DNA from: Candidatus Thorarchaeota archaeon
Lineage (GTDB): Archaea; Asgardarchaeota; Thorarchaeia; Thorarchaeales; Thorarchaeaceae
Assembly: GCA_048884965.1 (NCBI GenBank)
Contig: JBHLQH010000036.1
Location: 1-32,591 of the forward strand
Direction of reading: 5' to 3'
DNA length: 32,591 bases
Below are positions 19,309-31,306 of the stretch, piece by piece (the stretch's first letter is position 1; each line of letters starts with the position of its first letter). Below the pieces are notes generated by a model. The model was not told the origin of the DNA. It made no database searches and was given only the letters and a program-made list of their open reading frames with translations. The position numbers and the translations under genes are program-made.

Positions 19309-20241
19309 TCAATCCTTATGGTGCCAAAGTCCCTCTTGCTCTAATAGTCGTTCTAGGCGTATCTGACTCAATGTCTTTCCAACGATTGCGTTATAATATG
19401 TCATCGCAAAGCAGCGCTGAACTCCGGGAAGGTTCAACACTGCCATAGCTATTGGCTCCATATCTACTACTTTTTCTACAGTAAAAACTCCAAAGATTGT
19501 TGATTGAGATTCTACTACTCTTGAATTGAAATAGGAAACCGGATATTCACTATCTAACCAACTCGTGATATCATTAGCGGTTGTAATATCTTTGTCATAC
19601 TTGATCGTCATGGTGAATGCGGTATCTTTACCAAGGTTTGGATTCCATCGAAAGCCAACAGCTATCTTTCTATCGCCTTCAAGTTTCTGTAATACCTGCT
19701 TGACCTTCTTGGTACTCCATCCTAAATTCGTGGCAATATCATAGTCTATCATTCTTGGATTGACTGCTAATTGTCCGATGACACGAAGCTCGTTCTCTGT
19801 GAACTCAGGCATCTCTGGAAGATGTGACCTGCTTTCAAGCAGAACATCATGGACCTCAACTCCTTCAACGCCAGGAATCGATCCAATAAGCTGCGATAAT
19901 GCTACTAAATCGGACTCTTCTACATAATCGCAACTGACATAGTAATTACCATCAATAAAAGGCAATATCATATACACGCCTTCTACTTGCATCACAACAT
20001 CTCTGAATACATCAATTCTTACTGACGCATCAGTGAACACCATCAGTGTTGCTAATCTTAGATTGACTAAATCAGGATTAAGCATTACTACGAATCTATC
20101 AATGAATCCTGATGCCTCAAAATTATCTAATCTTTTTTTCACAGAAGAAGCTGATAGGTTGATTCTCGCTCCAAGATTACGATAGCTGATTCTGCCATTC
20201 CGAATCAATTCCAGCAATATTTTCTTATCTAGAGCGTCCAT
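19309..20241 (-). CDS. Lrp/AsnC-type regulator with two tandem wHTH-RAM modules
   Basis: MDALDKKILLELIRNGRISYRNLGARINLSASSVKKRLDNFEASGFIDRF and FTENELRVIGQLAVNPRMIDYDIATNLGWSTKKVKQVLQKLE. Confidence 0.85.
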   Translation of the reverse strand: MDALDKKILLELIRNGRISYRNLGARINLSASSVKKRLDNFEASGFIDRFVVMLNPDLVNLRLATLMVFTDASVRIDVFRDVVMQVEGVYMILPFIDGNYYVSCDYVEESDLVALSQLIGSIPGVEGVEVHDVLLESRSHLPEMPEFTENELRVIGQLAVNPRMIDYDIATNLGWSTKKVKQVLQKLEGDRKIAVGFRWNPNLGKDTAFTMTIKYDKDITTANDITSWLDSEYPVSYFNSRVVESQSTIFGVFTVEKVVDMEPIAMAVLNLPGVQRCFAMTYYNAIVGKTLSQIRLERLLEQEGLWHHKD

Positions 20242-20343
20242 ATACCCAAACCTCAGTGAATGTATGGTAGGGCATCCTCTGCTCTATCTGATTAACTTCC
20301 CGATTAGCGATAAATCTCATATGTGTCCATTTGAGCATATTAT

Positions 20344-21444
20344 TCAGAAAAACACATTTTGTGCTTCTTTGTGATTGGCTTCGGAATACATATGGCATGA
20401 AGCAAAGTGGCTCTTGTCTATTTCTACAGATTTTGGCTTTGTGCTGCAACAAATGTCTGACACGTACGGACATCGGGGATGAAATGCGCAACCTTGAGGT
20501 ATCTCCCTTGGGTTTGGAGGAGCGCCAGAAATTCCATGTAATTTTGGCCGCTCCCCGCCTGCAGCCAATCGCATCATTGCGATTGTTGGAAAGGAAGACA
20601 TCAGTCCTTGCGAGTAGGGATGCTTTGGTCTGTGGAATATCTCTTCTGCTGATCCCACTTCAACTATCCTTCCTGCATACATAATTCCGATACGGTCTGC
20701 CAGTTCAGCTATGACTCCAACGTCATGAGTCGCAATAACGAGCGCTACCTCGAATTCCTCTTTCACCATCTGAAGGAGACCAATCACTTCTCTTTGGACT
20801 GTTACATCCAGGGCGGAAGTAGGCTCATCGGCCATGACCAAATATGGAGCCGCAATTAGTGCCATCGCCAGTTTGATTCTTTGCGCCTCACCCCCCGAGA
20901 ATTTGCCAGGATCTAAGACATACCTGTCCTTTGCATCTGCAAGGCTTACTAGGTCCAGATACTCCAGTACTCTCTCCTTCATCTTCTCTGTCCGCAGATC
21001 TGTTTCGTGAATCTCTAGAGGCTCAGCTGTCTGCTTTCCTATGCTGAAGATGGGTGTTAGTGCACTGCCGAGTCCTTGAGGTATATACGCAATGTGTTTT
21101 CCAAGAAATTTCGCCCGTTCACGGTCACTGAGCGCGAGGAGATCAATGCCTCGATACATTGAACGACCAGTTACTGTCTTGTTCCATGTTTCCTTAGATT
21201 CATAATCTAGCTGAAATGGGAATATCCAATCATCTTGTATCTTCGCATCCTTGAATCTATGAGTTACTTGGAATAGTCCTAGTGCCGATGTCAGGAGTGA
21301 AGATTTGCCGCATCCTGACTCTCCGAGAATGCCAAAACACTCTCTGGGCTGCAAAGTGATTGATACACTATCGACAAGTACCAAGTCACCTTTATGGCTT
21401 GGAATGACCGCTCGTATGTTATCCAATTCGAACAGGTTCTTCAA
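20344..21444 (-). CDS. Oligopeptide/dipeptide ABC transporter ATPase (OppD/DppD family)
   Basis: Walker A GESGCGKS, Q-loop YIPQ, signature FSGGEAQR, Walker B VMADEPTSALD, THD, PKHPYSQGL, and C-terminal GCAFHPRCP...C...CH. Confidence 0.92.
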   Translation of the reverse strand: MKNLFELDNIRAVIPSHKGDLVLVDSVSITLQPRECFGILGESGCGKSSLLTSALGLFQVTHRFKDAKIQDDWIFPFQLDYESKETWNKTVTGRSMYRGIDLLALSDRERAKFLGKHIAYIPQGLGSALTPIFSIGKQTAEPLEIHETDLRTEKMKERVLEYLDLVSLADAKDRYVLDPGKFSGGEAQRIKLAMALIAAPYLVMADEPTSALDVTVQREVIGLLQMVKEEFEVALVIATHDVGVIAELADRIGIMYAGRIVEVGSAEEIFHRPKHPYSQGLMSSFPTIAMMRLAAGGERPKLHGISGAPPNPREIPQGCAFHPRCPYVSDICCSTKPKSVEIDKSHFASCHMYSEANHKEAQNVFF

Positions 21445-21451
21445 AACACAC

Positions 21452-21952
21452 TCACCCTCTGCCAGTATTTTCCCAGATTAGCCATCCTATGAAGATTTGA
21501 GAGCATCCTGTTACTCCATAGATGACGGGTGCTGCTGGTCTTGATAATCCTAATATCAAACCTATTAGAATGATCCAAAGTCCAGCTATGACTTCAGCTA
21601 ATATGATAGCAATGGCAGCCTTTGGACGCCCGAAAATTAGATTCATACCATTCATTTGAACTGCGACTCGCTCAGAAAGGGTTTCTCGATTCGAATCGAG
21701 GACCTCAATGCTAGAAATCTCCAAGATTTTGGATCCAACATATTGAATTCTCACAAGGTCCCCTATGTCTGGAACAACACCCTTTGCATACTGGCCATAA
21801 TGAAATTCCTTTCGACCTTCGTCTTCTCCTCTTAATGTGATCCTTCCTGAAGTGAATCCCGCCCATGCACCGAAATCCAATCCGATAACTATGCCTTCTG
21901 TAATCTTGGTACCTGGCGTGACTAAAGGTAGAGAATCTTGAGAGGTTGTCAA
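21452..21952 (-). CDS. Hypothetical membrane protein (N-terminal OB-like beta domain, two C-terminal TM helices)
   Basis: Beta-rich N-terminus (VPDIGDLVRIQY) and hydrophobic AAIAIILAEVIAGLWIILIGLILGL and VIYGVTGCSQIFIGWLIW. TTG start overlaps the upstream stop by 4 nt. Confidence 0.65.
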   Translation of the reverse strand: MTTSQDSLPLVTPGTKITEGIVIGLDFGAWAGFTSGRITLRGEDEGRKEFHYGQYAKGVVPDIGDLVRIQYVGSKILEISSIEVLDSNRETLSERVAVQMNGMNLIFGRPKAAIAIILAEVIAGLWIILIGLILGLSRPAAPVIYGVTGCSQIFIGWLIWENTGRG

Positions 21953-22377
21953 TAGACCTCAACTCTCGTGTCTTCTTTTTGATCCATAGACACCTCAACA
22001 TGAGATTTCTCTTCACTGAAGAATTCTATAATTTCCACAGAAGTAGGAGTTCCAATCATGGTCTTATTATTCCCTTCAAGTCTGGGGACTTTTCCTTTTG
22101 ACTGGATTCTTTTTCTGAATCCGTATTTTGAAACATCAATAACTTTCAATGTCCAATCCATCTTATCACATGCTCGAATTGCTGCATCTAGAAGCATGGC
22201 TTGTTGTGGTTCGAAGAGGGCAGCTTCAGAACCCATTCGGTCATAGGCTCCTGTTCTCATGGGACTAGCGCATTGATGTCCCAATGACTCAATATCTGCA
22301 CTGGAAGTGGATATCTTCATGGATTTTATGTAGAGTGTAAGTATTGGCTTCATCAATTGGGATTTCTCACCTATCAT
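21949..22377 (-). CDS. Hypothetical protein, possibly thioredoxin/glutaredoxin-like fold
   Basis: ILTLYIK...LKVIDVS...KVPRL...IGTPT pattern resembles a Trx fold with cis-Pro but has no CxxC. Start may be ATG 22353. Confidence 0.55.
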   Translation of the reverse strand: MIGEKSQLMKPILTLYIKSMKISTSSADIESLGHQCASPMRTGAYDRMGSEAALFEPQQAMLLDAAIRACDKMDWTLKVIDVSKYGFRKRIQSKGKVPRLEGNNKTMIGTPTSVEIIEFFSEEKSHVEVSMDQKEDTRVEVY

Positions 22378-22461: not shown

Positions 22462-24306
22462 TCAATTTTCAGACATATAGGGGTCTTCATCAATATCGAT
22501 TCCAAAGTATCCCATATCCTCAAGAATCTCATCCATGGCTTGAGCTCCTGAAACCCATGTTACCTTCCATTTGTGTTCAGGTGTCAGGATAAGCTCAACA
22601 TCTGGAAGGTCTCCCAGAAGATTGTGGTTCATCTCAATAACATCCTGATATGCTCCCGTCAAAGCGATAACAAAGTATGACCCTTGGACGTTCTTCAGGT
22701 AACCTACAGGTATTCCTGTCCCCATCTCTTGATCTGGCATAGCGACAGGTCTGTAGTCCCTTGTAAACCACACCTCCCCAACATCCTTCCGATGGAATTG
22801 AGATATCTCTCCATCAGAATCACAAGTTATGTCCGCCAACCTGATGGTAGTTTCAGGTCTCACGTGGAGGTCTCTGACAGGTATAATTGGAAAATGCTGC
22901 TGAACTAAGACATGGTCTCCTGCTGCATTGAAGACACTAAAGTTGCCTATGACCAAATGATCTGGGTGCCAAATATCCTCGATAATCCTATCGGATCTAA
23001 GGCTCTTACTTCCAACTCTGGCCAAGTCTCTTCGCATCTCAGCTCTCATCTCTCCAATGAACTGCTCCTTCTCTCTCAATGAATCAAGGGAATCTGGTGT
23101 AAAGCTCCAGCTTGAGAGAAACTCGTTCCACACATCTACGAGTTCTGTGAAAGAAGTGGATTGTGCCATTTTCGTCGTCCAACTCTTCTTCTCAGATTCA
23201 AGCTCATCGGTCAGTCCATCACTTTGTGGAAAGACAGATCTGACTTCTAATGCCTTGATGACTACCATTGAGTATAGTGCGGTGATTCCTCTTCCAGATT
23301 CGATCATTACATCTGGCTGTAGTCTGCTTTCGTTTAGCTCCTCCATCCCTTCCATTATCCCGCTAATGAGCGAATGTGCATAGAGTTCCATGAGGTTCTC
23401 CTCATGTGAACTAGTGTAATCAATAGGCAGACCTCCACCGAAGTCAATTCGGTGTAATCTATCGAGACCTGCATCTTTCAGTTCATAGAACACTTTGGTC
23501 ATGAATTTGGCGAAACCATGGAAATCTTCGATTGCAGTGATTTGCGAGCCCACATGTCCAAGAACCGTCGAAACCGAATCCTCAAATCCACGCTCTTTCA
23601 AGAGGGAAATTACGTCAAATAGGTCGTGAATACTAAGTCCGAATTTGGAGTCTCTTCCTGCGGAATGCGACCAATGTCCTCTTACCCTCAAATAGGGCTT
23701 TATTCGAAGCACGAGGTTCGTTTCATGTGGCTTCAGAAGGTCAACAATTAGATTGGCTTCATGAAGTGATTCGATGGAAATGGCGATATTGTATCCCTCC
23801 CTTACGAACTCCTCAATCGTGCGTAGGTACTCAGGATCCTTTGCGCCATTACAGATTATCAACCGGTCCTTTTCGTTCTTAATGACGCTCTTGATTAGGA
23901 AGAGCTCAGCCTTTGTGCCAGCTTCAAGACCATAGTTTCGATCTGCTTGGAGGACAGGAATTACGCAGTCCTTTCTTTGGTTGACCTTTACTGGATATAC
24001 AGCTCCGAACTGGCCTGAGTAATCTAGATCGCCCATAACCCTATAGAATGCTGATTTCAGCTTCTTGATCTGGAAATGAATTAGCTGGGGCATACGGAGA
24101 GTGAATGAGGATGTATATGCAGTCTTTGATCCATTCTCCAAAATAATTTGGGAAATTAGTTCATTGAAGTCAATTGTTTTACCCATGAAATTGATGAAAA
24201 GGTCTCCCTCTTCACTGATATCCAAGAACTGCAAGTCTTTCTTTCCAAGTCCGAAGACAACCCGTGACTTTTCTATCGTCCACTCTTTTGCATCCACCAA
24301 TGTCAC
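22462..24306 (-). CDS. speA: Biosynthetic arginine decarboxylase (PLP fold-type III)
   Basis: YPVKVNQ (PLP Lys), YGLEAGTKAEL, ICNGAKDPEY, SKFGLS, HVGSQI, DFGGGLPIDY, ESGRG, NFSVF, QHFPIIP, LADITCDSDGEI, GAYQDV...HNL. Confidence 0.9.
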   Translation of the reverse strand: MTLVDAKEWTIEKSRVVFGLGKKDLQFLDISEEGDLFINFMGKTIDFNELISQIILENGSKTAYTSSFTLRMPQLIHFQIKKLKSAFYRVMGDLDYSGQFGAVYPVKVNQRKDCVIPVLQADRNYGLEAGTKAELFLIKSVIKNEKDRLIICNGAKDPEYLRTIEEFVREGYNIAISIESLHEANLIVDLLKPHETNLVLRIKPYLRVRGHWSHSAGRDSKFGLSIHDLFDVISLLKERGFEDSVSTVLGHVGSQITAIEDFHGFAKFMTKVFYELKDAGLDRLHRIDFGGGLPIDYTSSHEENLMELYAHSLISGIMEGMEELNESRLQPDVMIESGRGITALYSMVVIKALEVRSVFPQSDGLTDELESEKKSWTTKMAQSTSFTELVDVWNEFLSSWSFTPDSLDSLREKEQFIGEMRAEMRRDLARVGSKSLRSDRIIEDIWHPDHLVIGNFSVFNAAGDHVLVQQHFPIIPVRDLHVRPETTIRLADITCDSDGEISQFHRKDVGEVWFTRDYRPVAMPDQEMGTGIPVGYLKNVQGSYFVIALTGAYQDVIEMNHNLLGDLPDVELILTPEHKWKVTWVSGAQAMDEILEDMGYFGIDIDEDPYMSEN

Positions 24307-24326: not shown

Positions 24327-25787
24327 CTACTGGGACTCGTCCTCTTTAATGGAATCAAGCATTCCTTGAAACGCTCTTGCTAGTTCGCCTATCTCATCGT
24401 CCTTATCCATGTAGCTCTTATCTACTTGGAGATCATCAGAATCGAGCTTCTCCTCTCGGATCATTGCTGAAACATTTCGAGTCGCAAGATCCATCAGATA
24501 CTGTAACGGACCCGTGATTTGATTGGCTACTACGACAGCCACAGCTCCCGCTATGAATATACCTGCAACGGTTATTGCAAGTATGAACATAGTTGCGGCG
24601 AGGTTCGCCTCTGCGATTCTTGCTTCAAGAGCTGGGATTGCGGCTTGAACCTCATTTACTGGTACGATGATGATGCAGATATATCCACCAACCTCGACTG
24701 GAGTGTAGGCTAGAATATAGTCTTCGCCTTCCTTACTGAAAACTTCAATTCCTGTGCTTCCTGACAGAATGTTATTGATCTGAATTGGTGTTAATGCAGA
24801 TTCAGTTCCATCCACCTCGAACTCCTGCAGAGTAGGCAATCTGCCAAATTGAGCATCATACCTCTCGTATACATCATCATCGACATCCGGATGTGCCAGA
24901 ATATCGCCACTTTCAGTTATGAGGGCTGCATAGCCTGTTTCAAGGACCTGAACATCAAGAATCTTTGTCCTGATGTTTTCAATAGAAATGTCTCCTGCTA
25001 CAATTCCAATTAGTGTCGCGGTATCGTCATATACTGCTCTCCCGATTGACATGAGTAGTACGTTATCGATTGGATCGAGATAGGGTCCATAGTAGACCAT
25101 CTGTCCCATACCCGCTCTGATAACTTGATAGAACTCATCGTCTGTTGGGTACCAAGGATCGCTTCCTCTGTCAGTATCTGACCCTCCTACATCACTACCT
25201 GGGTAGTTTATCCAGAGGTCGTTCTCAAAGCCAACATAGAGCCATCTGAATTCTGGGAGCTGAACATGTGCATACTGGAACATGAAATCGAGATTCGACA
25301 CTCTGTCTAGCCTATCTTGGTTTGATGTGTAGTAGGTCATATAATTGCCCGAATTTGAACCTGGAATGTACCAGCTGCTATAATTCCATGAGATATTGAT
25401 TCCATATCTCTCTGCATCATAGTATGCATCTTCAGGTGCTGTAGATAGGTTTCGAAAGAGATAATCATAGTAGATGTCCTCTCTGGGCAGATATGTGGAG
25501 TCCGAATCAAATAGCTGTTCGCACTCTTCTGCTATTGCCGCCACTAATCCCTCCGCGCTCTGTAGCTTCTGACTGATCACGCGTGCATTCTCTTCGGCGG
25601 TTATCTCCATATTACGACGAATCTGCTCTTCAAGTGCATCGGAACTTTGATCCGTTGTAAAGCCGCCAATCAAACCAATGAACTGGTATGAAATGAACCC
25701 TGTGACCCCAAGTGAAAGAACCGAGATTACGATGAAGGTCACGATAACGTTTCTTCGGAAACTGCCTTTTTTCTGTGTTGTTGCCAT
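24327..25787 (-). CDS. TM-dCache-TM-HAMP membrane sensor with no output domain
   Basis: N-terminal TM; WLYVGFE...INYP, GPYLDP...SIGRAVYD...LIGIVAGDI, TGYAALITESGDILAHP (dCache_1); TM2; HAMP ITGPLQYL...DDEIGELARAFQGML; stop 8 residues later. Confidence 0.88.
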   Translation of the reverse strand: MATTQKKGSFRRNVIVTFIVISVLSLGVTGFISYQFIGLIGGFTTDQSSDALEEQIRRNMEITAEENARVISQKLQSAEGLVAAIAEECEQLFDSDSTYLPREDIYYDYLFRNLSTAPEDAYYDAERYGINISWNYSSWYIPGSNSGNYMTYYTSNQDRLDRVSNLDFMFQYAHVQLPEFRWLYVGFENDLWINYPGSDVGGSDTDRGSDPWYPTDDEFYQVIRAGMGQMVYYGPYLDPIDNVLLMSIGRAVYDDTATLIGIVAGDISIENIRTKILDVQVLETGYAALITESGDILAHPDVDDDVYERYDAQFGRLPTLQEFEVDGTESALTPIQINNILSGSTGIEVFSKEGEDYILAYTPVEVGGYICIIIVPVNEVQAAIPALEARIAEANLAATMFILAITVAGIFIAGAVAVVVANQITGPLQYLMDLATRNVSAMIREEKLDSDDLQVDKSYMDKDDEIGELARAFQGMLDSIKEDESQ

Positions 25788-25799
25788 TACATTTCCCTC

Positions 25800-28688
25800 C
25801 TAGTAATCGTCTGTTGTTCCTCCGACTTCGAGCTGTGCCATCAGCACGCCAACCTCTTGGAAGGCTCTCTCGATATCCAATCTCACATCTCTGCTGTTCA
25901 CAACAGAGAAGTATTGTCCTTGTGGGATTGATTCACAAACGGATTCCAGTAGCTCTTCATAGTTCATCCTTTTACCTGTCTTGTCAGATCGAATATTGGC
26001 TTCGATAGCGTTTGCCAATTCTTCACCAACACCTATGATGATGAGATTGACATCCAGATGATTATCGCGAATGAAGCCTTCTATCGTCAATGGTTTCTTC
26101 CTGCTTTGTCTGTCTTTCTCTGTACGAATACCTTTGAGAATGTCCAGTGAGAACTTCTCAGAGCTATTGTCTTGTCCATCTGTGAGTGCAATAATCCACC
26201 GATGCTCACTCGATTCAACAAGGTTTAGGTCCTCAAGAGCGTGACCAAGTGCATCATAGAATGCGGTTGCATAGTTGGGATAGCGAAGTGAATCAAGAGC
26301 TTTCCAAATTGGACTGTCTCTTGAATCCTCGTACTCACCCTTCTTGGTCAACGGAAGAAGCTTCTGATACGTTGAGTTGAAGATGATGATACTCACTTCG
26401 TCTTGTGGATTCACCTGACTTGAGAGAATCTCCTTCGCACCAGTTACTGCAGCTTCTATTCTGTCCTGAGCTCTCATGCTACCAGAGTAATCAATGACTA
26501 GCACGACGCTCTTCTTGAACTGAATTGATCTTCTTAGTTTCTCAGCCTGTCTTCGTATATCGTGACTTGATTCATCAAGTTGGTCTTTGACATCTGCAAG
26601 TCTCTGCATCGCATAGACCTGTAGCCAGAATTCTTCAGTTCGCTCAGCGTAGTTGATCGAATCTTGGTATGCGGTTTTTGCGTTGCGCCACTCACCTTGT
26701 ATCTCATAGAACTCTCCTACGTGATAGTTGATGTACGCTAATCCTCTATCATATCCATGCTCATCAGCTATACGTTTTGCCTCATCGAACTTGGAACGTG
26801 CTTTACTGTATTGGCCTTGTTTCATCATCACAAGTCCCATTGCATCGTACCTTCGGGCAAGTCCCCTCATGTTACCGATGGTCTGGTCAACGGCCTCTGC
26901 ATCCTCAAGCTTTTCGATTGCCTCATCGTATTTCTTTAGATCCATCTCGATGAGTGCCATGTTATGATAGACAGAGGCAATACGATCCATTGCATCTGTT
27001 TCATTAAGACCACCCGCCTTCGCCTGCTCAAGGAGTTCCTTGGCAAGTCCGAGTGACCTCTCATAATATTCTAGCGCATTGCCAGTATCCCCTCGTTGTC
27101 TGAAGACGTTTCCAATGTTCAAATACATTGTCTGTTCTCCGATGTCAATGTCAAGACGTCTACTGATTTCCAAAAGGTTCTGATAGTTTGCTAGTGCTCG
27201 ATTGAGGTCGCCTCGAATGAAGGCTTGGTTACCAAATCTACAGGCTTCCTGGAAGCTAAGTAATGCATCAACGGTTGTGCCAATCTCCTCGTACATTGCC
27301 CCTGATGCTGTGATGCTTCTTGTGAAGTCCTGCTTTGCCATCTTCTCTACAAGTCCAGTCATTTCCTTGATGGGTTCGACAACTGCTCTCCCCCTCCTGA
27401 ATGACACTGCTGCAACTATAATGGCAAACACTCCCAAGACCCCTCCAAGAATCACTGTTAGGAATAGAGTCTGACCTTGGACAAGTGCGAGAATGTCTAC
27501 TGCTGGCTGCACGACCTCAGAGGCAGGTACAACTACAGCGAGCAAGAAACCCGTGCTCTCTACTCTTTCATAGGTTATGTACCACTCTTGGTTGCTCTTT
27601 GTGAAGGTTTCCTGACCGCTCCCTGCTATAAGTGCTGAAGCAAGAATCGAAGCGAAAGCTGTCCCCTCGGCAGATGATGTGAATTCTAATTCGATGAGTG
27701 ACTCTCGTTCATCTGTGAGGTCAGGGTGTGCAAGAACGTCGCCATCAGACTCCAAGATATATCCATAGCCGCTTTGAAGGACCTGTATGTCTAGAACACT
27801 TGAGAGAATCGTATCCATTGTTACATCTGCGGAAACGACTCCAATGAGGGTACCGTTATCGAAATAGATTGGTCTTCCAAGTGAAATGACTAAACCTGTG
27901 GATGGATCACCATATGGACTTGTGATGGCAATGCTGTTGTCGCTCATGGGAAGAGATGCGGCATTTGTATACCACTCTTCTTGAGGAGGGTCATAATCAT
28001 CAGCGGGTGCAAGGGGTGCTCCAGTTACATCATCCATTCTGAAATATTGAAGTGTGTCGTATGGATAATTCCGAAAGAGATGTGTGTCGCATACTCCTGG
28101 ATCAATTCCCATATAGAGCCAGATGTAATCCTCATTCATTTCGTGCAAAGATTTGAACACGTTATCCATGTTACTTGAAATATTAAGATAGGTCTGAGTC
28201 ATATGATCGAGTGGAAATGGATTTCCGCCAGATGGATAATATGGTCTAGGCATGTAATAACAACTAACATCGAAGGATATCATACCTGGACTCATGACCA
28301 CTCCATTATCAAGTTCGGAATAGTACAAGTCATTGTATGCTACTCCTGGTACAGTCATTCCTGTTTCCGCTAGTTCTACTGCACTATCCCAATAGTATGA
28401 GTGTCGTGGTGCCGCATTTATCCTTCCATTAAAAAGATCTTCGGCATAGTTCTCCATCAGAAAGACGCCATCTATGTAATTCTGCATTCTTTCTTCGATG
28501 AAAAGCGCAGTATCACCTGCGATTCTTTGGAGATTATCAATTTCCTCATTTTGCAGCGCGGTTGCGGCATCGTTTGCATTTTCACTTGATACATTGAATA
28601 TAGTCGTCACTGAAATTGCAGAGATGAACAATATAGGTATCAAAGAAACTGTCACAAATATTATGATTATCCTCTTACTAATGTCCAT
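25800..28688 (-). CDS. TM-dCache-TM-HAMP-TPR-VWA membrane receptor
   Basis: dCache (YDPPQEEWY, TSPYGDP, GVVSADV, GYGYILESDGDVLAHP); TM2; HAMP VVEPIKEM...EEIG; about 5-6 TPRs (YLNIGNVFRQRGDTGNALEYYERSL, YHNMALI, YDAMGLV); VWA with MIDAS IDYSGSM, TAFYDAL, IALTDGQDN, IIGVG. Confidence 0.88.
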   Translation of the reverse strand: MDISKRIIIIFVTVSLIPILFISAISVTTIFNVSSENANDAATALQNEEIDNLQRIAGDTALFIEERMQNYIDGVFLMENYAEDLFNGRINAAPRHSYYWDSAVELAETGMTVPGVAYNDLYYSELDNGVVMSPGMISFDVSCYYMPRPYYPSGGNPFPLDHMTQTYLNISSNMDNVFKSLHEMNEDYIWLYMGIDPGVCDTHLFRNYPYDTLQYFRMDDVTGAPLAPADDYDPPQEEWYTNAASLPMSDNSIAITSPYGDPSTGLVISLGRPIYFDNGTLIGVVSADVTMDTILSSVLDIQVLQSGYGYILESDGDVLAHPDLTDERESLIELEFTSSAEGTAFASILASALIAGSGQETFTKSNQEWYITYERVESTGFLLAVVVPASEVVQPAVDILALVQGQTLFLTVILGGVLGVFAIIVAAVSFRRGRAVVEPIKEMTGLVEKMAKQDFTRSITASGAMYEEIGTTVDALLSFQEACRFGNQAFIRGDLNRALANYQNLLEISRRLDIDIGEQTMYLNIGNVFRQRGDTGNALEYYERSLGLAKELLEQAKAGGLNETDAMDRIASVYHNMALIEMDLKKYDEAIEKLEDAEAVDQTIGNMRGLARRYDAMGLVMMKQGQYSKARSKFDEAKRIADEHGYDRGLAYINYHVGEFYEIQGEWRNAKTAYQDSINYAERTEEFWLQVYAMQRLADVKDQLDESSHDIRRQAEKLRRSIQFKKSVVLVIDYSGSMRAQDRIEAAVTGAKEILSSQVNPQDEVSIIIFNSTYQKLLPLTKKGEYEDSRDSPIWKALDSLRYPNYATAFYDALGHALEDLNLVESSEHRWIIALTDGQDNSSEKFSLDILKGIRTEKDRQSRKKPLTIEGFIRDNHLDVNLIIIGVGEELANAIEANIRSDKTGKRMNYEELLESVCESIPQGQYFSVVNSRDVRLDIERAFQEVGVLMAQLEVGGTTDDY

Positions 28689-28706: not shown

Positions 28707-30152
28707 CTATCGGCTCAACTCCAATAGCTCACTGTGTAGTTTTTTAATAAATTGATCAGCATCTTGTTTCTTATTCAGAGCAAAGTAATCATCATCAAGG
28801 CGTCCTTCGATTGTACCATCCGCCAACAGAATCATCAATGTCTGTCGGAGGATTGCTCTCGGGACACCGGTATCCCTTACCATCCTGTCAATCTCAACTC
28901 GATTCTCTCCCTTTAGAAGAGATTGCAGAATAGCTGGAATATTCCCAAGCTTCTCCTTTGATGGCATATCCGCCGTTTCTTTCTTTTGCTTGACTGTTCG
29001 GACGAATGTATTCCTATCGAGATGTCCTTCAATCTCTTTGCACTCAATCATACTCTGCAGGCTCCGCCTTAGATTGTATGACGCTGGACCTGGCAATGTA
29101 CGTCTTAGGATTCGGTCCAATTCCTTCAGCTTTATCTTGCTATGCTTTGTTGTGATTGAATCGATACTTTCTTTGATGAACTCCTTGACCTTGTATTCAG
29201 CAAGTCGTTCTAGGACCGCACCACATGAATTACATCTCTTTGCTTCCGGTAAAGACGGTGCTCCACAATTCCCACATTTGATAGCACGGCGGTACAATGT
29301 CATCTTTGTTGATTCAATCTCTTGAAGGATTGTTTTCTCTTCCCTTGTTTCTTTTGTGCTGGCAATTATTTCCCAGAAGCTAAGTCGTCTGTCATCCGTG
29401 CTCACTACGAGATAGGTTGTATCAGATTCATCATCAGCAACCCCTGTCGCAAGAGCCTTTGGTCTACCTGTAAGTTCGATCTTCTCGATCTGATTCCCAT
29501 CAATATCCCAGATTATTAGTTCCTTCTCTCGCTCCCCGGTAACGAATAGCTTTCTCTTTCCGAATGTAAGAACTCCAAAGACTGTGAGAGCATTTCCAAG
29601 CTTCAATCGCCTTAGAATATACCCCGCAGAGGTTAGAATGGTCAGGTTTCCGTGCCTGTCTGCTACAACAACTTCTAGCTCTTTATCTTCAGTGATATCT
29701 TCCAGCCAAACATCTGCGATGTTCCCTTCCATTCTCCGACTGAATAGAGCTTCCTTGTCATCGTTCCATAGAATAACCCTATTATTCTGGAGTGCAACTA
29801 CAACCTCGGCAGAATCATCACCATCAACATCTCTAGCATCACAAGCAATGACAGTGCTTTCAAGTTCGATCTTCCACATTGGTTTTCCTTGATGATCGAC
29901 GACTAGGACTCGCTTACCCACACCACCAACGAGTGCGTCCTTTCCTTCACCGTCGATATCGCCGACTGCTATGCATCTAACTTTGCTGCTCCAATTCCTT
30001 GCAGATTTTAGCGATCCTGAAACATCATAGACTCGCATCTTATCTCCATAGTCTAGCGCGAATACTTGGGCATTTCCTTGTCCGCTTTGACGTATGTAGA
30101 TACTATAAGCATCTGCTGAGATTGGGACTTTCGCGACCTCTCTCAACCTCAA
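28707..30152 (-). CDS. Soluble FG-GAP-like beta-propeller + zinc ribbon + two PCI-like winged helices
   Basis: About 42-aa blades with VGDIDGEGKDALVGG, ARDVDGDDSAEVVVA and LEDITEDKELEVVVA; CGNCGAP...RCNSCG; C-terminal LQSMIECKEIEGHLD and LMILLADGTIEGRLD. No signal peptide or TM; TTG start. Confidence 0.72.
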   Translation of the reverse strand: MRLREVAKVPISADAYSIYIRQSGQGNAQVFALDYGDKMRVYDVSGSLKSARNWSSKVRCIAVGDIDGEGKDALVGGVGKRVLVVDHQGKPMWKIELESTVIACDARDVDGDDSAEVVVALQNNRVILWNDDKEALFSRRMEGNIADVWLEDITEDKELEVVVADRHGNLTILTSAGYILRRLKLGNALTVFGVLTFGKRKLFVTGEREKELIIWDIDGNQIEKIELTGRPKALATGVADDESDTTYLVVSTDDRRLSFWEIIASTKETREEKTILQEIESTKMTLYRRAIKCGNCGAPSLPEAKRCNSCGAVLERLAEYKVKEFIKESIDSITTKHSKIKLKELDRILRRTLPGPASYNLRRSLQSMIECKEIEGHLDRNTFVRTVKQKKETADMPSKEKLGNIPAILQSLLKGENRVEIDRMVRDTGVPRAILRQTLMILLADGTIEGRLDDDYFALNKKQDADQFIKKLHSELLELSR

Positions 30153-30223: not shown

Positions 30224-31306
30224 ATGGCATTCGGTAAATCATGCAAAACAGGCTTCCTGTGGGACTCGGCCTTAGAAACATTCGATTTTGGAAGCCGTCA
30301 TCCAGTACGAGTTGGTCGCTTCCAGATGGTACGGGATTTTATCGAGACCTCAGGTTTCTTGGAACTCCCCAATGTGGTTACCATCAAACCTCGCCCTCTT
30401 GATGAAGAGATTCTTCAGAGAATTCATTCCCCAGAGTATATCGATAAAGTGAAGGAGATATCTAGAACGGGAAAAGGTGAGATCGATATCGATACGCCCG
30501 GTTTCAAGGGAATCTATGAGAATGCCATCATTACGAATGGTGCAACTGTGACAGGAATAGAATCTGTTCTATCTGGCGATGTTGATCATTTCTACACTCC
30601 CACTGGTGGGTTTCATCATGCAAGCTATGATAGAGGAGGCGGCTTTTGCATCTTTAATGATATTGCCGCATCAGTTCATAGGTTGAAGGATGCAGGACTG
30701 AGCAGGATTCTCATCGCAGACTTCGATGTCCATCACGGGAATGGGACTCAGTCATATTTCTACAGCGATCCTGGAGTGATGCAAATCTCATTTCATGAAG
30801 ATCCTGATTGGTTGTATCCACATGAGGGCTACATTTCTGAAATTGGAGATGGTCTTGGTTGTGGTTACAACATCAATATGTATTTTCCTTTGGACTCCGG
30901 TGATCAAGTATACAGATATGCATTTGATAAACTAGTTCCCAAACTAATCAGATTCTATCATCCTGAGTTCATCATCTTTCTACCTGGATTTGATGCGCAT
31001 TATCGCGATCCTCTGGCTCATCTGACTCTGACAACTCATATGATTCGATATGTTGCTGATACCATTCATCAATTAGCGCATCAGCTGTGTGGTGGACGCT
31101 TAGGAGTTGTATCGGGTGGAGGTTATAATCCAGATACATTTCATTGGGGTATTGGTGAAGTTCTCTCAGTGCTAACTGGTCATGGATACACATCCCCTCC
31201 TCAGAATCCCCCCTTTGAAGATGATGAGGAATCTTGGGAAATTGTGCAGAAGAATGTTCAAGAAATAGAAGGAACTGTGTTTCCGATATTGGGAATTGAT
31301 ACTTAG
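30224..31306 (+). CDS. Zn-dependent deacetylase, HDAC/AcuC/acetylpolyamine amidohydrolase superfamily
   Basis: HPVRVGR, IHSPEY, DTP, GGFHHA, GFCIFNDIA, DFDVHHGNGTQ, ISFHE, GFDAHYRDPL, GGGY. Confidence 0.92.
   Translation: MAFGKSCKTGFLWDSALETFDFGSRHPVRVGRFQMVRDFIETSGFLELPNVVTIKPRPLDEEILQRIHSPEYIDKVKEISRTGKGEIDIDTPGFKGIYENAIITNGATVTGIESVLSGDVDHFYTPTGGFHHASYDRGGGFCIFNDIAASVHRLKDAGLSRILIADFDVHHGNGTQSYFYSDPGVMQISFHEDPDWLYPHEGYISEIGDGLGCGYNINMYFPLDSGDQVYRYAFDKLVPKLIRFYHPEFIIFLPGFDAHYRDPLAHLTLTTHMIRYVADTIHQLAHQLCGGRLGVVSGGGYNPDTFHWGIGEVLSVLTGHGYTSPPQNPPFEDDEESWEIVQKNVQEIEGTVFPILGIDT

Follow-up and report, generated by a model that had tools for sequence, protein, structure and literature searches.

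Sequence alone does not reveal the ligand of most sensor domains; the amino-acid and amine motifs of the dCache_1 domains are, to our knowledge, the two cases in which it has done so. The dCache_1AA motif defines a universal amino-acid sensor that includes PctA, PctB, PctC, Mlp24, Mlp37, CtaA, Tlp3 and alpha2delta/CACHD1 (Gumerov et al. 2022, PMC8915833; Gavira et al. 2020, PMC6974571). The dCache_1AM amine sensors, represented by PctD, PacA, McpX and M. mazei 3LIB, are marked by an inserted upstream segment that bears an R...D pair (PctD R103...D133) and by a cation-pi Trp (PctD W155); they bound small amines and choline, not putrescine or agmatine, and among the archaea such domains were reported from a single phylum, Halobacteriota (Cerna-Vargas et al. 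2023, PMC10589655). The insertion and the Trp go beyond a preliminary description of the locus considered here, in which amine sensors were taken to be the amino-acid motif with an altered carboxylate-binding half. In TlpQ of P. aeruginosa (6FU4), a primary amine is held by Y208, D210 and D239 beside W192 in a strongly negative pocket, the 16 residues from W192 to Y208 equalling the W128-Y144 spacing of PctA (PMC6234866, PMC7584622), and both TlpQ and McpU bind histamine or putrescine through this Tyr/Asp/Asp triad (PMC6234866).

The window analysed here (the whole stretch of 32,591 nucleotides) comes from a Thorarchaeota (Asgard) archaeon and carries, on its minus strand, an operon encoding a beta-propeller protein, a long receptor (LONG), a short receptor (SHORT) and a SpeA-like arginine decarboxylase, with intergenic gaps of 12-20 bp. 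Our literature search found no paper on this receptor pair or operon. Its features are as follows.

28707..30152, minus strand: operon gene 1, a cytoplasmic FG-GAP/BBS2-like beta-propeller with a zinc ribbon and PCI-like winged helices (Pfam, protein atlas).
25800..28688, minus strand: LONG, 962 aa, with TM1, dCache_1 ectodomain, TM2, HAMP-like linker, TPR repeats and a VWA domain with intact MIDAS (ORF, translation, Pfam).
27477..28601, minus strand: LONG ectodomain, a double Cache fold, residues ~30-404 (AF2 model, VIA-align).
27969..27995, minus strand: N half of the LONG motif, Y232-D-P-P-Q-E237-E238-W239-Y240, with E237 at the PctA R126 position (translation, HMMER alignment, orthologues).
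27906..27914, minus strand: LONG Y259-G-D261, equivalents of the amino-group binders Y144/D146 of PctA (motif search).
27825..27827, minus strand: LONG D288, equivalent of PctA D173 (motif search).
24327..25787, minus strand: SHORT, 486 aa, with TM1, dCache_1 ectodomain, TM2 and HAMP and no output domain (ORF, Pfam, AF2).
25128..25154, minus strand: N half of the SHORT motif, W212-Y-P-T-D-D217-E218-F219-Y220, with D217 at the Arg position (translation, HMMER alignment, orthologues).
25074..25082, minus strand: SHORT Y236-L-D238 (motif search; invariant in orthologues).
24990..24992, minus strand: SHORT D266 (motif search; invariant in orthologues).
22462..24306, minus strand: SpeA-like arginine decarboxylase (PLP-dependent, 614 aa), which follows SHORT after 20 bp (NCBIfam, solved relatives).

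The two receptor ectodomains are the sole dCache_1 domains of the genome. Both clear the gathering cut-off of 45 bits for PF02743, LONG with 65.0 bits (E 1e-17) and SHORT with 72.8 bits (E 4e-20). The other Pfam matches of LONG are TPR_12 and VWA_2; HAMP is called in its homologues, although not in LONG itself, and its MIDAS (D733-x-S-x-S...T808...D837) is invariant in 42 orthologues. An AF2 model of LONG residues 1-440 (pLDDT 88.6) superposes on PctA/B/C, Mlp24/37 and CtaA with Z ~18 and rmsd 2-3 A, and on alpha2delta with Z ~20 (VIA-align), while the SHORT model (pLDDT 80; ectodomain >85) matches PctA, CtaA and Mlp24 in Foldseek with TMt ~0.8. That the best matches in both sequence and fold are PctA/B/C, Mlp24/37 and CtaA supports derivation of both pockets from the amino-acid type. 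As a separate observation, the ectodomain of this receptor type is, among prokaryotic proteins, one of the nearest in fold to eukaryotic alpha2delta/CACHD1.

In pairwise HMMER alignments, LONG aligns without gaps to the 6iop chain (...DYDPRKRPWY...) and to PctB (...DYDPRRRPWY...), and SHORT to 3c8c (...TWDPRVRPWY...). Because this nine-residue stretch aligns gap-free to Y-D-P-R-x-R-P-W-Y, E237 of LONG and D217 of SHORT fall at the position of PctA R126. The carboxylate-binding Arg by which dCache_1AA is recognized is therefore replaced by an acid in both receptors, and the equivalents of all other motif positions (Y144, D146, D173, W128-Y129 and Y121) are present in both. The residues and coordinates of the preliminary description (27995-27825 in LONG, 25154-24990 in SHORT) were reproduced exactly by translation and a regular-expression search, and its statement that the Arg is changed to Glu or Asp while the amino-binding half is preserved is borne out by the HMMER alignments and by 42 LONG and 40 SHORT orthologues. 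In the LONG family, position 237 is Glu in 38 sequences and Gln in four, never Arg or Lys; position 238 is Glu in 21 and Asp in 17 (n=42), and Y232, W239, Y240, Y259, D261 and D288 are invariant. Position 217 of SHORT is likewise never Arg or Lys (24 Glu, 14 Asp, one Asn, one Gln); position 219 is Trp in 33 of the 40 and Phe in seven, Y220 is invariant, position 212 varies among Tyr, Trp and Phe, and the family consensus reads P-Y-D-P-R-G-E-D-W-Y. With the acid and the amino-binding residues retained in both families despite overall identities of 50-85%, the Glu/Asp replacement is a family trait and not a chance event.

This pattern bears on two explanations that dispense with an amine. One or both pockets could be ligand-free, the ectodomains serving only to dimerize or to touch another surface protein, with the loss of Arg reflecting relaxed selection. 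The LONG pockets of three other Asgard families (f22, f23 and f20) have indeed clearly decayed, to NQE, HRE and MFE at the Tyr/Asp/Asp positions, which indicates that the family is able to lose the site; yet in the Thorarchaeota LONG and SHORT proteins, at overall identities of 50-60%, each of the seven motif positions shows little or no variation, and the replacement itself is held to Glu or Asp, the opposite of decay, which leaves this explanation barely plausible. Alternatively, an acid-rich pocket might bind a metal (Ca2+ or Mg2+), alone or as a bridge to an anion, and thereby sense ions, or amino acids via the metal. The predicted pockets would bring together three to four carboxylates (E237, E238, D261 and D288 in LONG; D217, E218, D238 and D266 in SHORT), and PMC10589655 mentions dCache_1 domains with inorganic ions as ligands. 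However, the Tyr/Asp/Asp triad and the Trp match those of ammonium-binding pockets exactly, we found no earlier example of a metal bound here, and a metal would leave the association with speA unexplained; we regard it as very unlikely.

The enzyme encoded next to SHORT scores 335 bits against the NCBIfam model for biosynthetic arginine decarboxylase, NF003763 (cut-off 369), and 312 bits against TIGR01273 (cut-off 624). All of its best relatives among solved structures are arginine decarboxylases (3nzp, 3n2o and 3nzq; E 1e-56), with which its PLP-lysine stretch, YPVKVNQ, aligns. The gene is the only PF02784 member of the genome, and a search of the genome for a pyruvoyl arginine decarboxylase found none; as judged from sequence, SpeA is the only candidate arginine decarboxylase. 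TiaS and an arginase-family gene are also present, which implies that agmatine would be both required and metabolized further. The predicted product, agmatine, would be made in the cytoplasm, whereas the receptor pockets face outwards, and this counts against a link between the pockets and agmatine.

The gene order propeller-LONG-SHORT-speA is retained in ~50 Thorarchaeota genomes or loci. The conserved synteny there also takes in unrelated flanking genes (HDAC-like, M24 peptidase and LarE-like), so that inherited gene order may account for part of the speA adjacency. A reading of the divergent HDAC-like gene as an acetylpolyamine amidohydrolase found no support, its best solved relatives being HDAC6 (3e-65) with APAH at only 1e-30; since its conservation is confined to Thorarchaeota, we regard it as a positional neighbor. 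The genes downstream of speA (orf142, orf166, an ABC ATPase and an AsnC-type regulator) were likewise set aside as lying outside the conserved cluster. A propeller homologue adjoins the receptor pairs in Thorarchaeota and also, in a rearranged order, in f11, f20, f22 and f23.

In other Asgard families, speA is co-directional with, divergent from and adjacent to, or within 6 kb of the receptor pair. Every sampled pair beside speA lacks the Arg in both proteins, and no canonical-Arg pair was found beside speA among the sampled Asgard pairs. Such Arg-type pairs occur in f21 and as the second pair of one f11 genome, with no speA nearby; that f11 genome also holds an acid-type pair, and its Arg-type pair adjoins an aminotransferase gene. 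A strict equation of the acid with speA fails, however, in both directions: f20, f22 and f23 have an acid-type SHORT but lack speA in the flanking regions, and in speA-linked families the Arg position is Gln or Phe (f13) or Trp or Phe (f14) in LONG and Gln in the f14 SHORT. Thus, the acid noted in the preliminary description holds as a conserved Glu/Asp within Thorarchaeota and does not extend to all speA-linked pairs, for which the general rule is loss of Arg and not gain of an acid. The LONG tree is congruent with the SHORT tree, the speA-linked clades have good support, and the association of Arg loss with speA represents few independent events, with one or two Arg losses and deep nodes that lack resolution.

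Since Arg loss accompanies a neighboring speA across Asgard genomes, the prediction of an amine ligand for the Arg-less pockets is well supported. The ligand could instead be another ammonium-type compound unrelated to the SpeA product (small methylamines or ethanolamines, choline, ammonium, an amino sugar or the N-terminus of a peptide), with the speA adjacency reflecting inherited order or co-expression. The acid-type SHORT proteins without speA in f20, f22 and f23, the unrelated genes in the Thorarchaeota synteny, the preference of assayed amine-binding dCache domains for small amines over polyamines (PMC10589655) and the housekeeping character of SpeA, which is the sole arginine decarboxylase in a genome that has TiaS, all fit such a ligand. 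Against it, the pair stays near speA despite rearrangement in six Asgard families with 25-45% protein identity and differing flanking genes, and Arg-type pairs are never beside speA. On balance we think a ligand unrelated to SpeA unlikely. The earlier proposal of an amine matching the SpeA product is supported in part: the Arg loss on which it builds tracks speA, and agmatine, putrescine and spermidine are at most candidate ligands.

Collectively, we put the probability at roughly 0.5 that the Arg-less LONG/SHORT pair senses an amine as a joint receptor tied to SpeA. The pockets keep the Tyr and two Asp residues predicted to hold an ammonium group, together with the structural Trp/Phe-Tyr, and have lost the Arg that would pair with an alpha-carboxylate. 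With Glu (LONG) or Asp (SHORT) in its place, followed by a second acid, they should exclude alpha-amino acids and favor a carboxylate-free cationic amine, of which the simplest would be a diamine or the product of amino-acid decarboxylation, such as agmatine, putrescine or a related polyamine. LONG and SHORT probably act as one receptor, a heterodimer, to which SHORT would contribute HAMP alone inside the cell and LONG its HAMP-like, TPR and MIDAS-VWA regions as docking modules, with no enzyme. That the pair appears to be co-transcribed with the propeller/winged-helix protein and the only recognizable arginine decarboxylase suggests a link between the extracellular amine level and intracellular synthesis of agmatine or polyamines. 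The analysis shows the motif, its conservation, the fold, the operon and the association of Arg loss with speA across the phylum; the ligand class, the heterodimer, the signaling route and the direction of control are what we infer from them. A fuller proposal is tentative and, taken whole, doubtful: that [YW]-D-P-x-x-E-[ED]-W-Y...Y-x-D...D marks a new dCache_1 ligand class, in which an Asgard receptor that is heterodimeric and lacks a kinase (dCache-HAMP-TPR-VWA plus dCache-HAMP) senses extracellular agmatine or polyamines and controls the sole arginine decarboxylase via a TPR-VWA/propeller scaffold, and that Arg-keeping sister pairs sense amino acids and are wired to other amino-acid enzymes.

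The locus offers a third, clean variant of dCache_1, its pocket unchanged but for a charge reversal at a single position, for which the Arg-keeping sister pairs are natural controls and speA a genomic hint to the ligand. Were binding confirmed, it would yield a diagnostic motif for polyamine/agmatine sensing, a class termed uncharacterized in the field, the first ligand for an Asgard receptor and a way into a receptor type that lacks enzymatic output.

Among the known systems, McpU (P. putida, 6F9G) and TlpQ, compared here from the literature, share with LONG and SHORT the dCache_1 domain and the same Tyr/Asp/Asp triad and Trp; they differ in being bacterial MCPs with an unusually large LBD, a class without a published motif. 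Neither 6FU4 nor 6F9G was among the phmmer, Foldseek and VIA-align matches listed, and a relationship may still exist. We also rejected the extra acid of TlpQ, E170, as an earlier case of Arg replacement by an acid, the W192-Y208 spacing placing the Arg equivalent at residue 190. The agmatine-binding chemoreceptor PacG was set aside as a comparison, the accessible part of its report (PMC13215616) describing no comparable pocket.

The dCache_1AM sensors resemble LONG and SHORT in their origin from amino-acid sensors, the loss of Arg and retention of the W/F-Y pair and the last Asp. The dCache_1AM core (PctD F188-Y189 and D235) has its counterparts in W239-Y240/D288 of LONG and F219-Y220/D266 of SHORT but does not discriminate, since the same positions are common to the amino-acid motif. 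PctD, McpX and 3LIB are among the sequence or fold matches of the receptors, the PctD fold match (Z 18.0, VIA-align) not exceeding those of amino-acid sensors and the SHORT-3LIB phmmer match starting only at residue 218, past the N half of the motif. The first aromatic and the YxD Tyr, which are not conserved in dCache_1AM, are invariant in LONG and SHORT (the SHORT aromatic being Y/W/F). With these amino-acid-type residues kept, we do not file the receptors as dCache_1AM, which they do not fit as far as this is testable.

The closest likeness is to dCache_1AA, with which LONG and SHORT share fold, spacing and six of seven motif residues; the SHORT orthologues even retain the surrounding Y-D-P-R-G-x-x-W-Y context. 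They differ from it in the replacement of the carboxylate-binding Arg (PctA R126) by Glu or Asp followed by a second acid, and in output: whereas dCache_1AA domains feed kinases, MCPs, cyclases and phosphatases, SHORT carries HAMP only and LONG a HAMP-like linker with TPR-VWA.

The Arg-to-acid replacement in the dCache_1 pockets of two neighbouring receptors, LONG and SHORT, is confirmed and extends beyond the window. The receptors lie within a run of four minus-strand genes separated by gaps of 12-20 bp.

Genes of the receptor–speA run
28707-30152, minus strand: propeller gene, whose cytoplasmic product combines an FG-GAP/BBS2-like propeller, a zinc ribbon, and PCI-like winged helices
25800-28688, minus strand: LONG receptor, 962 aa (Pfam dCache_1, TPR, VWA)
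24327-25787, minus strand: SHORT receptor, 486 aa (Pfam dCache_1, HAMP)
22462-24306, minus strand: SpeA-like decarboxylase

The window belongs to a Thorarchaeota (Asgard) genome, with the closest homologues bearing that name, and LONG and SHORT carry the only dCache_1 domains of the 4.09-Mb assembly (96% complete). Divergent from the operon is an HDAC6-like class IIb deacetylase (30224-31306, plus strand; E 3e-65 to HDAC6), which receives no name from NCBIfam and holds the same place throughout Thorarchaeota. On the other side, four genes (19309-22377) separate speA from a LarE-like PP-loop gene: two ORFs that match no Pfam family, one ABC ATPase carrying an oligo_HPY tail, and one double AsnC/TrmB-type HTH regulator. 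All four are missing at the equivalent position in ~50 related Thorarchaeota loci, where a LarE-like gene or an M24 peptidase directly follows speA.

The motif residues and coordinates reported for both receptors in the preliminary description were all reproduced by script. In the amino-acid sensor PctA, Y121, R126, and W128 bind the ligand carboxylate and Y144, D146, and D173 the amino group (PMC6974571, PMC8915833). In HMMER pairwise alignments, the LONG segment Y-D-P-P-Q-E-E-W-Y aligns without gaps to Y-D-P-R-K-R-P-W-Y of the 6iop chain and to Y-D-P-R-R-R-P-W-Y of PctB, and the SHORT segment W-Y-P-T-D-D-E-F-Y aligns in the same way to W-D-P-R-V-R-P-W-Y of 3c8c; the downstream Y-x-D and D of both receptors are likewise aligned to solved amino-acid sensors. 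Given the published residue roles and these alignments, E237 of LONG and D217 of SHORT occupy the position of R126 (the Arg position), with the amino-binding half intact, and the gap-free register suggests that both side chains would point into the pocket. The ectodomains span about residues 30-404 of LONG and 40-395 of SHORT. Their confident AlphaFold models (pLDDT 88.6 for LONG residues 1-440, >85 for the SHORT ectodomain) match PctA/B/C, Mlp24/37, and CtaA with Z ~18, rmsd 2-3 Å, and TMt ~0.8.

Both families are present throughout Thorarchaeota at 50-85% identity. Across 42 LONG sequences, D231, Y232, W239, Y240, Y259, D261, and D288 never vary; at position 237, 38 sequences have E and four have Q, and at position 238, 38 have E or D; the VWA MIDAS (D733-x-S-x-S, T808, D837) is also unchanged in the 42 orthologues. 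SHORT has invariant Y220, Y236, D238, and D266, with W or F at position 219 and E24/D14/N1/Q1 at position 217. Many SHORT orthologues read P-Y-D-P-R-G-E-D-W-Y, which is the conserved region of an amino-acid sensor with the second Arg alone altered. This pattern reflects purifying selection that keeps an altered pocket, as opposed to decay.

The product of the adjoining decarboxylase gene scores just under the NCBIfam equivalog cut-off (335 versus 369 bits), retains the PLP-lysine stretch, and has an arginine decarboxylase as every one of its top solved relatives. It is the sole PF02784 gene of the assembly, a search of which found no pyruvoyl arginine decarboxylase (ADC); the assembly also encodes one arginase/agmatinase-family gene and TiaS, which requires agmatine for tRNA-Ile. 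Taken together, these features make the SpeA-like gene most probably the source of the cell's agmatine.

Among 54 Thorarchaeota loci, the order propeller–LONG–SHORT–speA is retained wherever the contig permits, and the HDAC-like gene and M24 peptidase too hold their flanking positions. The exception, the chromosomal locus L017 (CP070658.1), has SHORT–speA, with no LONG, propeller, or HDAC-like gene detected within 10 kb upstream. Profile searching across 400 Asgard genomes recovered adjacent LONG–SHORT pairs in at least 10 families, and 36 more loci were scored for neighbours and motifs. In six of these (f1, f8, f10, f11, f13, and f14) the pair is associated with speA, which is co-directional, divergent and adjacent, or 6 kb distant (f14), and in every such pair scored both proteins are without the Arg. 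The substituting residue in LONG is E, or Q/F in f13, W/F in f14, and Q/S in f10; in SHORT it is an acid (E or D), except for Q in f14. Beside speA, loss of the Arg is the rule, and an acid at the exact position is common, not universal. The canonical Y-D-P-R-x-R-x-W-Y occurs in f21 pairs and in the second pair of one f11 genome that also has an acid-type pair (Glu or Asp at the Arg position), and no speA was found near these Arg-type pairs. In that genome, G065, genes for a class I/II aminotransferase and for an AMP-binding enzyme are transcribed divergently from the second pair (L071:9625-12493), mirroring the divergent speA beside the acid-type pair of G065.

Families f20, f22, and f23 (L090-L096) are counter-examples to the acid–speA link: most of their pairs have an intact acid-type SHORT (F-D-Y-K-T-D-D-W-Y...Y-x-D...D), and their flanks contain no speA. 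Their LONG pockets are decayed, the Y/D/D positions reading N/Q/E, H/R/E, or M/F/E. In six of the seven loci the propeller gene is downstream and not upstream.

In the ectodomain tree, LONG and SHORT form reciprocal paralogue clades with congruent branching. The speA-linked families fall into two well-supported clades, f1+f8+f11+f13+f14 (support 0.99) and f10 (1.0); Arg-type L071, L084, and L103 cluster with f10 (0.92 in SHORT, unsupported in LONG), and deep nodes are weak. The association between Arg loss and speA thus depends on one or two independent losses. More widely, the Arg position is Arg in 93, Glu in 27, and Asp in 10 of the 150 best relatives drawn from 1.84 billion representatives, and the dCache-(HAMP)-TPR-VWA architecture recurs, in Arg or acid state, in entries labelled as Loki-, Hod-, and "Asgard group" archaea.

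The preliminary description had predicted a polycationic amine, such as agmatine or a polyamine, matching the product of SpeA. An amine is the best-supported reading of Arg-less pockets beside speA, and we put the full explanation at roughly even odds; agmatine or a polyamine as the specific ligand is less certain. A literature search found no paper on the LONG/SHORT–speA system.

Among solved chains, eukaryotic alpha2delta subunits give the LONG ectodomain (model m23f3aa54b1d4) its top fold matches (Z 19-20.6, 21-24% identity), and CACHD1 is its second-best PDB sequence match (E 1.5e-10). In LONG, however, the VWA domain is cytoplasmic, after the second TM helix, whereas in eukaryotes it is inserted in the Cache domain. 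The published amine class, dCache_1AM, has as its signature an insertion upstream that bears an R...D pair, together with a cation-pi Trp, F-Y, hydrophobic-x-S, and a last Asp. Its ligands were methylamines, ethanolamine, ethylenediamine, and choline, with no binding of putrescine or agmatine, and among archaea it was detected in Halobacteriota only (PMC10589655). Judged on the positions that could be compared, we do not place LONG and SHORT in this class because, unlike it, they keep the first aromatic and YxD Tyr of the amino-acid type. The McpU/TlpQ polyamine class has been termed uncharacterised (PMC10589655). A McpU/TlpQ-type precedent for an acid at the Arg position is not established: TlpQ E170, which serves the ring nitrogens of histamine, is placed elsewhere by its spacing (PMC6234866, PMC7584622). 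TlpQ holds the primary amine of histamine by Y208, D210, and D239 beside W192 (PMC6234866, PMC7584622), and the amine-holding mechanism of McpU/TlpQ resembles that proposed here for LONG and SHORT.
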